A DNA stretch of 10,097 nt. It comes from a virus. Its lineage: Duplodnaviria; Heunggongvirae; Uroviricota; Caudoviricetes. Below the pieces are notes generated by a model. That model was not told where the DNA came from. It searched no databases and saw only the letters and a list, made by a program, of their open reading frames with translations. Position numbers and translations under genes: made by a program. How positions within the stretch are numbered: the stretch's first letter is position 1; every line of letters starts with the position of its first letter. The stretch spans positions 1 to 10,097 of IMG/VR virus record IMGVR_UViG_2537561978_000012; one strand, written 5' to 3'. Below are positions 1,177-4,681 of this stretch, one piece after another.

Positions 1177-1521
1177 TCAGAACTCTTCGATGTTCCAGCC
1201 GCCACCTGCTTTCTTTGGTTTAACCGTTACCCCGATGATTCGGAACGGATACTGATCTGCGGCTACTTTGGTTTTCACTCTGGCGTCGTCGGTCCAGAAA
1301 CCTTTCACTTCGTGCAGTTCCATCTCTCCGGTGGCGAGCATCACAGCGAAATCGGGCGTATAGAACGTGTTGTCAGCTAACCGCAGCTTAATACCCTCGA
1401 ATAGATACCAGGCGATTTCCCCTGCACGTTTACGCTGCTCAAGGTGCTGGCAATACGCAGATTCTGTTTTGTTCATCTGGCCTGTTTTGAGTCGACCAAG
1501 AGCCTGTATCTGTTTTCTCAT
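1177..1521 (-). CDS. DUF1064-like PD-(D/E)XK-fold protein (putative nin-region nuclease)
   Basis: ATG at 1521..1519. An AGAGG Shine-Dalgarno sits inside the operator palindrome at 1525-1539. Protein has a PD...E.HEVKG arrangement (YTPDF ... ELHEVKG) typical of small PD-(D/E)XK nucleases; overall resembles the about 115 aa DUF1064 phage proteins as I recall them. Confidence 0.55.
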   Translation of the reverse strand: MRKQIQALGRLKTGQMNKTESAYCQHLEQRKRAGEIAWYLFEGIKLRLADNTFYTPDFAVMLATGEMELHEVKGFWTDDARVKTKVAADQYPFRIIGVTVKPKKAGGGWNIEEF

Positions 1522-1524
1522 GAT

Positions 1525-1601
1525 TTACCTCTAAGGTAATTAAAAACCACATAAGACACGAAATCAATAGAGTTTAGAATATTTTATTACCTCACAGGTA
1601 A
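1525..1601 (-). promoter_or_regulatory. Operator pair plus candidate leftward promoter for the nin-like operon
   Basis: Two perfect TTACC-N5-GGTAA palindromes at 1525-1539 (TTACCTCTAAGGTAA) and 1587-1601 (TTACCTCACAGGTAA), 62 bp centre to centre. On the minus strand a TAAAAT -10-like hexamer immediately follows the 1587-1601 site, and a TTGATT / TTTAAT pair lies between the sites. The 1525-1539 site covers the Shine-Dalgarno and abuts the ATG at 1521. Confidence 0.55.
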
Positions 1602-1611
1602 TTATCGAGAC

Positions 1612-1633
1612 GTAAAAAAATGCGCTATCGCGC
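1612..1633 (-). terminator. Weak intrinsic-terminator-like element downstream of the P-like gene
   Basis: On the minus strand, immediately after the stop at 1641..1639: GCGC-GATA-GCGC hairpin (4 bp GC stem) followed by a T7 run (plus-strand A7 at 1614-1620). Stem is short, so strength is doubtful. Confidence 0.3.
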
Positions 1634-1638
1634 TGGTA

Positions 1639-2415
1639 TTACTTGATAAATCCTGCCGCCTTTCCCCGCCTGTATTCCTCCATCAGCCACTGCGCCGGTG
1701 TTATTCCCCCAAGGGTGGCGGCGTTAGGCATGCACCCGAAACTTCGCCCTGGTGGATGGTAAACGTCTCTCCCTGTGTCCGGAGGCGTACTCATGGGTTC
1801 TGGCTTTGCCTGTATGCTGATCACCGGATCCGGTATCTGCTGTCCGGAAGCCACCTTTTTCGCCCAATCATCGAGCAGCCTGCGCGCGTGTTTCTCAACC
1901 TCAATCTCGCTAAGCTGGCGCTGATACATTGCACGGCGGGTATCACATACGACCCAGTACATAACCGGATGTCGCCACGGGAATCTTTCGGGACCACCAG
2001 GATATAAACTTTTTTCCTTGCTGTACCGGTGAAACTCCGCCATCACATCGTCAATGGTGACGCCAAGAACCATCTTGCTGTCTTTACACCACTTGATGAA
2101 TTGCCCTGGCGACGGCCAGAACGGAGACTCACTGGCGCGGGCGTGGCGCATACCAGCGTTAACCTGTTCCATTGTAGTGATCCCATTCTCCAGAAACGCA
2201 AGCATCCATTGCTTACGGAATTCATTAAGTTTGTTCTGCTCCCTTATGGTCGAAACGCTTGCGGGAAATGCAGCCTGTAACTGGACAAATAGTTCATTGA
2301 AAATTCTAGCGACCTGCTCCTTTTTGCCATTGCTGTCACGCCGCTCTTCATGCACAGCAACACCATGCTCACGTAAGCGATCGTACTCATTGAGAAGTTC
2401 TGGAGTTGATTTCAT
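1639..2415 (-). CDS. Lambda P-like replication protein (DnaB helicase loader)
   Basis: 258 aa. Long collinear similarity to lambda P as I recall it: AAFPASV...NEFRKQWMLAFLENGITTMEQVNAGMRHAR...PFWPSPGQFIKWCKD versus lambda ATFPASL...NEIRRQWVLAFRENGITTMEQVNAGMRVAR...PFLPSPGQFVAWCRE. ATG at 2415..2413 with an AAGGGG Shine-Dalgarno; start overlaps the 3' end of the upstream O-like gene. Confidence 0.85.
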   Translation of the reverse strand: MKSTPELLNEYDRLREHGVAVHEERRDSNGKKEQVARIFNELFVQLQAAFPASVSTIREQNKLNEFRKQWMLAFLENGITTMEQVNAGMRHARASESPFWPSPGQFIKWCKDSKMVLGVTIDDVMAEFHRYSKEKSLYPGGPERFPWRHPVMYWVVCDTRRAMYQRQLSEIEVEKHARRLLDDWAKKVASGQQIPDPVISIQAKPEPMSTPPDTGRDVYHPPGRSFGCMPNAATLGGITPAQWLMEEYRRGKAAGFIK

Positions 2416-3217
2416 CCCACACCCCTTCTATCCAGTCAGTGTTATTCCAGTCAAGCTCATCGCTTTTCCCGGCGTTTTTTGATTTTCCCCTGATATGATT
2501 TACGTGCCTGGCGAATTTTTGTTCCCACTGAACCTGCGTGAACACTTTGCCCTCAGCCATCCAGTAATCCCGGAATGCAGCAAGTTCAGCAGGTGTAAAT
2601 TCCGGTTCCGGCAGGGCCGTTCCCCACAGCGCAGCACGCCGTCGAAAATCCGGCGACGGATGCCAGCCATCGGTCATCGGAAATTTCCCGATGGGTTCAC
2701 TCAGGCCATCCAGAAATTCAGGTTCAGCCACCTGCAACGGCATACCGTTCGCTTCACTGGTCGGAGCACCCTCGCGCACGTGCGCTATGTGTGGGGTTTT
2801 ATATATATCTTCCTCTTCCTCTTCCTCTGGTAACTCCTTTTGTAACGCTGTTGGCGTTACTTTTTGCGTTACTCGTTTTCGATGCTCTGCCACTCTTCTA
2901 TTCGTAAGTGCACGTTTTTTCGATGATTCTCCATTGTGTCGCTCAAAGTTTGGAAGAATTAGTTTGCCGTCATGATAAGCAAGCCATCCGACGCTAATGA
3001 GGGCGTCAGCAAATCCTGTAATAAAAGCGAGTCTATCAAGTACTCCTTTTGTAACGCTGCCAGCGTTACCGTCTATTGTTTGCTGGTCAGCCCATGCCCA
3101 TATACGAACCAGCTTTCCAAGAACAGCATCTGGATCAATACCCAGAATTTCTGCTATCTGAAAAATTTCAGGTTTATCAGGAGTGATAACTTCAACCTTA
3201 ATCCAGCTGCTTGCCAT
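2387..3217 (-). CDS. O-like replication initiator (HTH N-terminus, acidic linker, DnaT-like C-terminus; tentative)
   Basis: Track ORF is 2387..3235 beginning at a GTG. I prefer the ATG at 3217..3215 (MASSWIKVEV...) because GAGGGG lies about 7 nt upstream. Sits immediately upstream of and overlapping the P-like gene, carries an EEEEEE linker and internal iteron-like DNA repeats. Not similar in sequence to lambda O; assignment rests on position and architecture. Confidence 0.65.
   Translation of the reverse strand: MASSWIKVEVITPDKPEIFQIAEILGIDPDAVLGKLVRIWAWADQQTIDGNAGSVTKGVLDRLAFITGFADALISVGWLAYHDGKLILPNFERHNGESSKKRALTNRRVAEHRKRVTQKVTPTALQKELPEEEEEEDIYKTPHIAHVREGAPTSEANGMPLQVAEPEFLDGLSEPIGKFPMTDGWHPSPDFRRRAALWGTALPEPEFTPAELAAFRDYWMAEGKVFTQVQWEQKFARHVNHIRGKSKNAGKSDELDWNNTDWIEGVWDEINSRTSQ
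2797..3069. repeat. Iteron-like repeat array inside the O-like gene (candidate replication origin)
   Basis: Two perfect 19-bp palindromes GTAACGC-N5-GCGTTAC at 2842-2860 and 3051-3069, each preceded by the identical 18-mer ACTCCTTTTGTAACGCTG (2833-2850 and 3042-3059). Extra GCGTTAC half-site at 2866-2872; CGTTTT(TT)CGATG direct repeats at 2874-2884 and 2913-2925; (TA)-rich tract TTTTATATATAT at 2797-2808; (CTTCCT)3 at 2809-2826. Confidence 0.5.
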
Positions 3218-3410
3218 AGGTTTCCCCTCTTGCACTCTTTAGTGCACAAGCAAATTCATTACGATGGCGGTTGGCGCTATTCATTGCACATTCAACACAT
3301 GTTCCGTTCAGAACATACCTTTCAGAGAGATGGCCGTGACGGCACCGCTTTCCTGTGAAATAGCGATTTAACCCGGCTTTTGCGGCCTCCATTCTGGTTA
3401 CTATCTTCAA
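3198..3410 (-). CDS. Small zinc-ribbon-like protein at the cII position (hypothetical)
   Basis: Track ORF starts at a TTG (3410..3408) with an AAGAGG Shine-Dalgarno about 9 nt upstream; alternative ATG at 3392..3390 (MEAAKAG...) has no obvious Shine-Dalgarno. Contains C-x-H-x-H ... C-x2-C (KRCRHGH...CVEC). Its 3' end overlaps the O-like start region. No similarity to lambda CII noted. Confidence 0.45.
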   Translation of the reverse strand: MKIVTRMEAAKAGLNRYFTGKRCRHGHLSERYVLNGTCVECAMNSANRHRNEFACALKSARGETYGKQLD

Positions 3411-3517
3411 TTTTTCCGCCTCTTTTTGTTATTGATATTGGCTATTTTGCACAATTGGAAAATTTGATCAACCAGATTTGGTTTTTTATTACCTTTGAGG
3501 TACGAATAGATATGAAA

Positions 3518-3537
3518 AGACCGCCGGGTGGCGGTCT
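3518..3537 (-). terminator. tR1-position hairpin (possible partial terminator / attenuator)
   Basis: Perfect 8-bp stem AGACCGCC / GGCGGTCT with loop GGGT, located between the Cro-like gene end (3559) and the zinc-ribbon gene. On the minus strand it is followed by TTTCATATC, a weak U-tract. No T-run on the plus strand. Confidence 0.35.
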
Positions 3538-3821: not shown

Positions 3822-3888
3822 ATATTCACCCATAAGGTAACAAAAATCAAGGATAGTTACCTATGAGGTGCATTTACCTGTTGGGTAA
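3822..3888. promoter_or_regulatory. OR-like tripartite operator with divergent promoters
   Basis: Site C 3874-3888 TTACCTGTTGGGTAA (perfect); site B 3857-3871 TTACCTATGAGGTGC (left half perfect, right half 3/5); site A 3826-3840 TCACCCATAAGGTAA (one mismatch). Candidate leftward promoter on the minus strand: -35 TTGATT (plus 3845-3850), 17-bp spacer, -10 GAATAT (plus 3822-3827), with site A inside the spacer/-10. The rightward repressor promoter is not confidently located; TAATAT at 3886-3891 is a candidate -10. Confidence 0.6.
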
Positions 3889-3943: not shown

Positions 3944-4528
3944 ATGAAAAGTATCCAGGACGTCCGCAGGCAAAATCTCAACGACTTGATCGACCGTGAA
4001 TTCAATGGTGTTCAGACGCGGATGGCAGAAAAACTTGGAACTCAGGCAAATCTGGTAAACCGCTGGGCTCTTGGCAAGAAGGTTATCGGCGACCAGGTTG
4101 CGCGAAAAATTGAAGCTGCCGCCAATAAACCCCGTAACTGGCTTGATATCGATCGCTCGCTTTCTCAGGAGGGGTTTCAGCCTGTCGGCCCAAGCGACAT
4201 TGGTCAGCTGGCGGCTCACAACCTGGAACGCTGGATGAGCGAAAGCCGCGACCTTTCAACGCAGGGAAAACTACACCGCGCATCCGGCGTCGCCCAGGTG
4301 ACAATCAGCCGCCTGTTAAACAATGAAGTCAGCGTTTCCATTTCCACCCTAGAGAATGTTGCATCCGCATTCGGGCGTCACGGCTATGAATTACTGATTC
4401 ACCCGCACGACCCTGCGACTATCAACTATGACCGCTCGCGCTACGCATTGTTACCCGAAACAGAGAAGGCAAAGATCGAAAGTTACATTGAATTTGTCAT
4501 CAGCCAGAACGAAAGAAGCAAACAATAA
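3944..4528 (+). CDS. Prophage repressor, CI-position, dual helix-turn-helix, no S24 peptidase domain
   Basis: 194 aa. First ATG of the frame at 3944, in-frame stop upstream at 3914-3916, no convincing Shine-Dalgarno. Two HTH-like segments: MAEKLGTQANLVNRWALGKK (N-terminal) and LHRASGVAQVTISRLLNNEVSVSISTL (C-terminal). No Ala-Gly / Ser...Lys autocleavage module evident. Divergent from the Cro-like gene, followed by a terminator and then the pL-like promoter, i.e. the lambda cI layout. Confidence 0.7.
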   Translation: MKSIQDVRRQNLNDLIDREFNGVQTRMAEKLGTQANLVNRWALGKKVIGDQVARKIEAAANKPRNWLDIDRSLSQEGFQPVGPSDIGQLAAHNLERWMSESRDLSTQGKLHRASGVAQVTISRLLNNEVSVSISTLENVASAFGRHGYELLIHPHDPATINYDRSRYALLPETEKAKIESYIEFVISQNERSKQ

Positions 4529-4573: not shown

Positions 4574-4585
4574 TTGCCAACAAGA

Positions 4586-4662
4586 TTACCTTATGGGTAA
4601 TTTTTTTAACTCATATCTATTGACATCAAACCAAATACGCATAATTATTACCTCAACGGTAA
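4586..4662 (+). promoter_or_regulatory. pL-like early promoter flanked by two perfect operators
   Basis: Perfect palindromes at 4586-4600 (TTACCTTATGGGTAA) and 4648-4662 (TTACCTCAACGGTAA). Between them a consensus -35 TTGACA at 4620-4625 and an A/T-rich -10 candidate (AATTAT, 4643-4648) after a 17-bp spacer. The downstream site overlaps the -10 and start region. Confidence 0.65.
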
Positions 4663-4681
4663 CAGACCGAGGTAACAAGTT

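Follow-up and report, generated by a model that had tools for sequence, protein, structure and literature searches.

The 117-bp gap between the lambda-P-like replication gene and the DUF1064 gene is probably, with real room for doubt, a repressor-gated promoter cassette, i.e., a sigma-70 promoter repressed by the prophage repressor Rep and serving the nuclease-led operon that follows the replication genes. The gap was analyzed as part of a stretch of 10,097 nucleotides, hereafter the window. Judged from its sequence, the window is the early region of a temperate E. coli podophage of the phiV10/epsilon15 type, genus Uetakevirus, and its identity to phiV10 and relatives is 96-98.5%. In the minus-strand reading direction, the following features were found in the gap and at its borders.

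1639 to 2415, minus strand: replication gene of the lambda-P family, last of the upstream operon (Pfam PF06992, E 1.7e-55).
1612 to 1633, minus strand: terminator-like element, GCGC (1633-1630), loop GATA and GCGC (1625-1622), followed by A and T7 (1620-1614), 5 nt after the stop codon of the P gene.
1587 to 1601: distal dyad, candidate Rep operator, TTACCTCACAGGTAA; the epsilon15 orthologue is annotated as protein_bind 'repressor'; half-sites invariant and centre hypervariable in 61 unique relatives.
1581 to 1586, minus strand: TAAAAT adjoining the distal dyad, kept as (T/C)AAAAT with AAAAT invariant.
1562 to 1567, minus strand: -35-like TTGATT, set off from the distal dyad by 19 nt, a register that it shares with the TTGACA of pL.
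1539 to 1544, minus strand: -10-like TTTAAT at a 17-nt spacer (TTAATT at 18 nt), sharing its last base with the start of the proximal dyad; non-canonical, with a base other than A at position 2.
1525 to 1539: proximal dyad, candidate Rep operator, TTACCTCTAAGGTAA; kept in all relatives examined.
1177 to 1521, minus strand: DUF1064 gene, first of the downstream operon (Pfam PF06356, E 4.1e-07); annotated in relatives as endonuclease-I-like.

The sequences of both dyads were read from the window. Each has the arms TTACCT and AGGTAA, 6 bp long, with 3 central bases between them, and the two dyads start 62 bp apart. A preliminary description of this DNA had reported two perfect copies of the OR/OL motif here, flanked by P-like and DUF1064-like genes; the coordinates and the perfect arms were confirmed, and both flanking genes are supported by Pfam. 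On the minus strand, the gap runs from the P stop codon through 5 nt, the hairpin with its A and T7, 10 nt, the distal dyad, TAAAAT, TTGATT, 17 nt, TTTAAT, and the proximal dyad to ATC and ATG. The proximal dyad covers the predicted transcription start and the Shine-Dalgarno sequence AGAGGT (1532-1527, minus strand). Its end is separated by 3 nt (ATC) from the ATG at 1521, in agreement with the earlier placement of an AGAGG Shine-Dalgarno inside the site and 3 bp from the ATG. The distal dyad is located 65 nt from any start codon.

Such sites are strongly overrepresented in the window. With up to two mismatches allowed, TTACCTNNNAGGTAA has 9 matches, against 0.19 expected, and none of 200 shuffles reaches 9. 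Perfect TTACC-N5-GGTAA sites were found at five positions (1525, 1587, 3874, 4586, and 4648), against 0.00 expected in 200 shuffles. No Rfam match was found in the whole window. The repressor gene, the other operators, and one further replication gene are located as follows.

3944 to 4528, plus strand: Rep, prophage repressor with two HTH regions and, by Pfam, no peptidase S24 domain; presumed binder of the dyads.
3826 to 3888: OR, three dyads (3826-3840, 3857-3871, and 3874-3888) between the divergent Rep and cro-like genes.
4586 to 4662, plus strand: OL/pL cassette, with dyad 4586-4600, 19 nt, TTGACA 4620-4625, 17 nt, AATTAT 4643-4648, and dyad 4648-4662.
3489 to 3503: single post-cro dyad with 1 mismatch, TTACCTTTGAGGTAC, between the terminator of the cro-like gene and the replication genes.
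2387 to 3235, minus strand: DnaT-domain (DnaT/O-like) gene, identified by domain match.

Inside the DnaT/O-like gene, a 28-nt direct repeat was found at 2833-2860 and 3042-3069, the copies being 209 bp apart. Each copy contains a palindrome of 19 nt, which reads GTAACGCTG-T-TGGCGTTAC in the copy at 2833-2860 and GTAACGCTG-C-CAGCGTTAC in that at 3042-3069, and a TCTTCCTCTTCCTCTTCCTCT run is located close by at 2808-2828. Together, the repeats and the run could be a candidate replication origin.

Rep of the window aligns over its full length with SPC32H Rep (PDB 5D50; E 4.5e-42, residues 1-190), at about 42% identity. The Rep proteins of phiV10, BUCT554, Tyrion, BUCT711, epsilon15, and SPC32H are 42-78% identical to it, and in the N-terminal HTH stretch NLVNRW..G.K.G..AR.IE the listed residues are invariant across the genus. 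SPC32H Rep engages DNA as a tetramer in which each DNA-binding pair is built from two different dimers, and it is removed by a tetrameric antirepressor, not cleaved (PMC9638917). In the Rep tetramer, the two pairs of middle domains are about 100 Å apart, and the tetramerisation domain has been likened to that of pLS20 Rco, a protein that forms loops between operators 75 bp from each other; the repression mechanism of SPC32H-type Rep 'has not been extensively characterized' (PMC9986798). Because the window encodes a Rep of this tetrameric, antirepressor-removed type, the lambda paradigm, in whose terms the DNA had first been described, is the wrong reference frame. The gap pair consists of two sites 62 bp apart that go with a Rep lacking the peptidase S24 domain, as against the lambda type, in which a CI repressor with a LexA-like cleavage domain binds three adjacent sites cooperatively. 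By motif, cognate Rep, and orthologous position, both gap sites are presumed to be Rep operators of the Uetakevirus (epsilon15/SPC32H) type. When covariation of operator and repressor was looked for, the TTACC half-site proved common to all full-length Rep relatives: each of them, down to 41% identity, uses TTACC-N5-GGTAA, and no differing operator was found among them. Among more distant matches, which cover the N-terminal domain only, no TTACC-N5-GGTAA sites were found.

Conservation of the dyad pair is genus-wide. In phiV10, Enterobacter phages BUCT554 and Tyrion, Klebsiella phage BUCT711, and Salmonella phages epsilon15 and SPC32H, it follows the last replication gene and keeps its 62-bp spacing. 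Prophages of Superficieibacter, Erwinia, Klebsiella, Citrobacter, and Scandinavium, six in all, likewise have the pair, spaced by 61-62 bp (61 in one). In an unbiased sample of 80 IMG/VR loci, for which the P protein was the sole criterion of choice and which comprises about 60 distinct intergenic sequences, both dyads are perfect in 79 loci, and a single mismatch was found in the remaining one. The comparison with relatives that had been suggested as a check thus places the pair at the same position in the six named phages, the six prophages, and 79 of the 80 loci. Over 61 unique sequences, only one change was found in the 20 half-site columns, and 9 of the 10 columns of the dyad centres vary, with 28 haplotypes at the distal centre. 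To judge from this alignment, selection acts on the half-sites.

The centres have a peculiarity of their own. Among close relatives (loci L128-L207), the distal-dyad centres and upstream flanks (1592-1596, 1602-1610, and 4579-4594) are near-saturated. Their nucleotide diversity is 0.5-0.64 in both the gap cassette and OL, compared with about 0.05 for the fourfold sites in the flanking genes, and, unlike them, the half-sites and the OR centres hardly vary. Hypermutation acting locally on the dyad centres was considered and rejected: loci identical over 865 flanking nt always share identical centres, and no sign of a fast process was seen in loci with identical flanks.

The genes next to the pair are less constant than the pair itself. 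The DUF1064 gene of SPC32H is 93% identical to that of the window and has the same dyad pair ahead of it. In epsilon15 and Tyrion, a RuvC-like junction nuclease gene is located downstream of the pair instead of DUF1064, and the pair is still present. Of 87 cassettes, about 70 are followed by a DUF1064 gene, about 15 by a RuvC-like gene with the motif LGIDPGCS, and a few by a different small ORF. This first-gene slot (IMG/VR loci L008-L127; L003 2594-3058; L004 2836-3300) is interchangeable, nuclease-like genes undergoing non-orthologous replacement at a fixed regulatory position. No dyads were found upstream of the DUF1064 homologues of Pseudomonas phage F116 and Vibrio phage phi 2 (83% and 69% identical, respectively), both of which are outside the phage records matching Rep. 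As far as these distributions tell, the dyads go with the Rep-type immunity system and not with the genes on either side.

The gap cassette resembles the OL/pL region in its geometry. The OL dyads are located downstream of the repressor gene, around the strong promoter TTGACA-17-AATTAT, and the two regions share one plan: a dyad, 19 nt, TTGAnn, 17-18 nt, and an A/T-rich hexamer adjoining the second dyad. When IMG/VR was scanned for dyad pairs with the 62-bp spacing, at least 120 stretches were obtained. In 165 of the 167 paired-dyad occurrences in the loci compared, TTGA occupies positions 20-23 of the spacer, in one orientation. These occurrences belong to just two classes. The pL class has TTGACA or TTGACT, and its first gene begins with MQWKIING. 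The gap class has TTGATT, TTGATA, or TTGAAA, and its proximal dyad is followed by the ATG at a distance of 3-5 nt (in a few loci, 18 nt). Since the spacer of the gap cassette (O3) is identical to that of OL at 22 of 47 positions in the window and at 29 of 47 in Tyrion, against about 14-15 in shuffles, the two spacers look paralogous.

The terminator-like element upstream of the pair is conserved but weak. Its hairpin has a folding energy of -8.4 kcal/mol (z -1.7) and a stem of only 4 G-C pairs, and it was not called by the terminator scan (stem below 5 pairs). GCGC-N4-GCGC with T7 is kept in six diverged phages, and a putative terminator is annotated in the phiV10 record. The weak hairpin with a T7 run that had been noticed earlier is thus present, conserved, and annotated in phiV10, and its strength is indeed low. 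We read it as a weak intrinsic-terminator-like element at the end of the replication operon. If the dyads had no promoter of their own, Rep bound to them could stop polymerase reading through from the replication operon, as at the stoperators of phage L5, so that the dyads would act as a roadblock or terminator helper. Such a role would suit dyads placed 10 nt downstream of a weak conserved terminator, the non-canonical -10 of the window, and the similar dyad found after the terminator of the cro-like gene. We consider it unlikely, since it needs neither the fixed-register -35-like element of 165 of 167 cassettes nor the pL geometry, since the dyads are palindromic, unlike the orientation-dependent stoperators, and since pR is itself repressed in the lysogen, which leaves little to block.

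The promoter elements between the dyads are clearer in the relatives than in the window. In the gaps of epsilon15 and SPC32H, the promoter scan made exactly one call each, TTGAAA-18-TAAATT, located between the dyads and having A at position 2 of the -10. In the window, neither TTTAAT at 17 nt nor TTAATT at 18 nt has A at this position, and neither was called by the consensus scan. Since the scan called TCGATA-16-TAAAAT instead of the TTGATT promoter, the gap promoter of the window may be weak, activator-dependent, or differently placed. The non-canonical -10 is the main weakness of the promoter reading for the window phage.

The called element coincides with the TAAAAT that had earlier been proposed as a -10-like sequence next to the distal site. 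It is present at 1586-1581 with AAAAT invariant, but it has no conserved -35, and the conserved TTGATT is favoured over it; TAAAAT may be a UP-like A/T tract or may serve a minor, alternative promoter as its -10. With 1586-1581 as the -10, the spacer would be filled by the distal dyad, and transcription would start about 45 nt upstream of the proximal dyad. We regard a promoter at this place as quite improbable, in spite of the scan call and of the (T/C)AAAAT kept in all lineages: its -35 positions are among the most variable of the region (pi up to 0.61; relatives read, among others, TCAATA, AGCACA, and CACACA), the TG extension is absent, and pL has merely a T-run at the equivalent place. 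Two further assignments were rejected. TCGATA (1608-1603) as the -35 of a main promoter with TAAAAT consists of hypervariable bases, and the TAGAAT positions of a plus-strand candidate, AAGACA-16-TAGAAT (1553-1580), read GCGCAT in BUCT554, epsilon15, and BUCT711.

The gap pair is an ordinary member of a genome-wide operator set, and not the unique third cluster for which it was first taken. In the window, a dyad is also located at 3489-3503. In total, 14 sites with at most one mismatch were found in the complete genome of phiV10, at about ten loci. Twelve of the 14 sites are located in annotated non-coding DNA at operon heads. The heads with sites are those of the portal operon, the antirepressor region, the tail fibre, lysis, and integrase genes, together with OL, OR, the post-cro position, and the gap pair. 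The remaining two sites are located inside the terS ORF as annotated, within 80 nt of its start. The position of the post-cro dyad is kept in phiV10 (33112), Tyrion (L003 5024), and BUCT554 (L002 7313). The rightward early region may thus consist of three units, each repressed on its own. In the window, the TTACCTTTGAGGTAC dyad is located just after a terminator at 3518-3537 (minus strand) and 17 nt before TTGATC-16-CAAAAT.

Several observations were made at the other operators of the set. In phiV10, dyads 87-101 and 105-119 are located inside the annotated 5' end of terS (41-125, with the start at 41). The N-terminus of epsilon15 TerS, MPAEPK, aligns with a phiV10 ATG at about 122-125, directly after the second dyad; the annotated start at 41 is probably too early. 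The heads of the late operons (portal, tail fibre or tailspike, and lysis) have a common plan, consisting of a Rep dyad, 32-44 nt, CATATGTGGTT, 7 nt, and a -10-like hexamer beginning with TA. These heads are located at 3252-3340, 20877-20950, and 24692-24770 in phiV10 and at 2932, 19896, and 24704 in epsilon15, where CATATAAGGTT replaces CATATGTGGTT at the tailspike head. The late-head motif may be a site for a phage activator. The gap cassette carries TTATGTGGTT, in a register differing from that of the late heads. A shared late-promoter motif, WTRTGGTTW, was tried and is kept as no more than an observation: it has 7 matches in phiV10 against 2.7 expected, a modest excess, and its register in the gap cassette differs from that of the late heads. 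Also in phiV10, a LexA-box-like sequence, CTGTATAAATACACAG, was found at 20822-20837 in the divergent region upstream of p24. This gene precedes p23, the Bro-N 'anti-immunity' gene, and a Rep dyad is located between the two (20497-20511). The box and the p24/p23 layout are consistent with SOS-controlled induction of the antirepressor, which has reportedly been described for SPC32H.

The gap dyads could also serve as auxiliary operators only. The pair would then mainly be a high-affinity anchor that raises the local concentration of Rep or loops to OR, about 2.3 kb away. Comparable arrangements are the OL-OR pair of lambda, the flanking sites of phage 186, and OD of TP901-1. Two local dyads already saturate one tetramer, OR is anywhere from about 2.2 to 3.3 kb away in the relatives while the local spacing is fixed at 62 bp, and similar dyads head late operons far from OR. 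A purely auxiliary role is therefore thought distinctly unlikely, for all that both gap dyads are perfect where several OR sites are imperfect and that Rep is tetrameric with a loop-type tetramerisation domain.

A chance or Shine-Dalgarno-related origin with no regulatory role, for which the overlap of GGTAA with GAGGT-type ribosome-binding sites (e.g., 1527-1532 and 4670-4676) could be cited, has a negligible probability and is refuted by statistics and conservation, as the preliminary description had anticipated for the full dyads: the five perfect sites stand against none expected in shuffles, 65 nt separate the distal dyad from the nearest start codon, and the half-sites are invariant across genera at places where the neighbouring bases vary.

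Under the preferred reading, that of a Rep-repressed promoter, the cassette would be composed of a weak terminator ending the replication operon, the distal Rep operator, TTGATT with an A/T-rich -10 at 17-18 nt, and the proximal operator over the transcription start and the ribosome-binding site. In the lysogen, Rep would occupy both dyads. Because 62 bp corresponds to about 5.9 helical turns, the dyads are expected on one face of the helix, and this placement, together with the two DNA-binding pairs of Rep, makes bridging by one tetramer plausible. One Rep tetramer would probably bridge the dyads, enclose the promoter, and keep the nuclease-led operon, about 4 kb long, silent. Against bridging, the enclosed segment of 47 bp is a very tight loop. 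On induction, the antirepressor would dismantle Rep, and the gap promoter would fire together with pL and pR, with no wait for read-through from pR. Since the terminator is conserved and read-through from pR would be at least partly cut, the downstream operon would need a start of its own; since the hairpin is weak, read-through from pR may nevertheless supply much of the expression. A junction-type nuclease as the first gene would be a good reason to repress the operon tightly and directly. Direct repressor control of the downstream operon, as proposed in the preliminary description, is in keeping with the OR/OL motif of the sites, their association with Rep immunity, the weak terminator upstream, and the promoter-like elements between them; its lambda framing and its promoter at TAAAAT have been given up.

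A broader version of this reading is possible but doubtful. The order terminator, dyad, promoter, dyad would be a duplicated and portable 'insulated switch', paralogous to pL and closed by one Rep tetramer that bridges the two in-phase dyads, with the -35 and -10 wrapped in a micro-loop of about 47 bp. Together with the single dyads at the late heads, it would mean that the whole programme of epsilon15/phiV10-type phages is run by direct and simultaneous derepression via the antirepressor, not by a lambda-style antitermination cascade.

If the cassette works as proposed, these widespread serotype-converting prophages of E. coli, Salmonella, and Klebsiella depart from the lambda scheme of two operators and antitermination. 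A single antirepressor-sensitive tetrameric repressor would then act on every operon head, including that of the operon for a junction-cutting nuclease, which a lysogen presumably must hold tightly off. The fixed 62-bp pairing would offer a concrete geometry for an SPC32H-type Rep tetramer on DNA.

Among known systems, lambda has the same gene order of a cro-like gene, replication genes, a P-family gene, a terminator, and small accessory genes. The nin region of lambda is reached by N-dependent read-through of tR2, i.e., by antitermination, and lambda is not known to have an operator or promoter between P and the nin block. In the window, a terminator with a repressor-gated promoter appears to replace this antitermination logic, and Rep is not CI-like. 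In phage P1, the C1 repressor has operators, asymmetric 17-mers, scattered round the genome at separate operon heads, including those for late functions. The 14 sites at about ten loci of phiV10 are similar in this respect, by functional analogy only, the proteins being assumed unrelated. The stoperators of L5 gp71 are numerous, located outside the immunity region and often in short intergenic gaps, asymmetric, and orientation-dependent, and they act on elongation. In contrast, the gap dyads are perfect palindromes, with no such asymmetry, and they bracket promoter elements. Rco of pLS20 combines an N-terminal HTH with a p53-like tetramerisation domain, as does SPC32H Rep, and its two operator regions flank a promoter, with tens of bp between them (PMC9986798). 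It differs in having direct-repeat arrays and in the participation of several tetramers in looping.

The closest parallels are found within the genus. SPC32H has a Rep that aligns over the full length and the same dyad pair before its DUF1064 gene; it differs in its repressor, which is about 42% identical. The Rep/Ant switch of SPC32H (PDB 5D50 and 5D4Z) was reportedly described by Kim and Ryu in 2013 and by Kim et al. in 2016. For epsilon15, the publication tied to the genome record is said to be that of Kropinski et al. from 2007. In that record (GenBank AY150271.2), the same motif, (A)TTACC-N5-GGTAA(T), is marked as protein_bind 'repressor' at 35906-35922, between the replication and junction nuclease genes, i.e., at the site orthologous to the distal dyad. 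The record contains seven or more 'repressor' binding features, including those at OL and ahead of the terS, portal, and tailspike operons. Thus, a repressor site at the gap position is already on record for the genus. At the gap, the distal site alone is annotated in epsilon15, the proximal dyad, the inter-dyad promoter, and the 62-bp pairing being unmarked there and in the other records consulted. The GenBank records of phiV10 type carry none of these sites as repressor-site features and have only a 'terminator' feature in the gap, a point of use for their annotation. The present analysis adds to the epsilon15 annotation the genus-wide conservation of the pair, its independence from the flanking genes, its apparent paralogy to pL, and a fixed 62-bp pairing that fits a tetrameric Rep.
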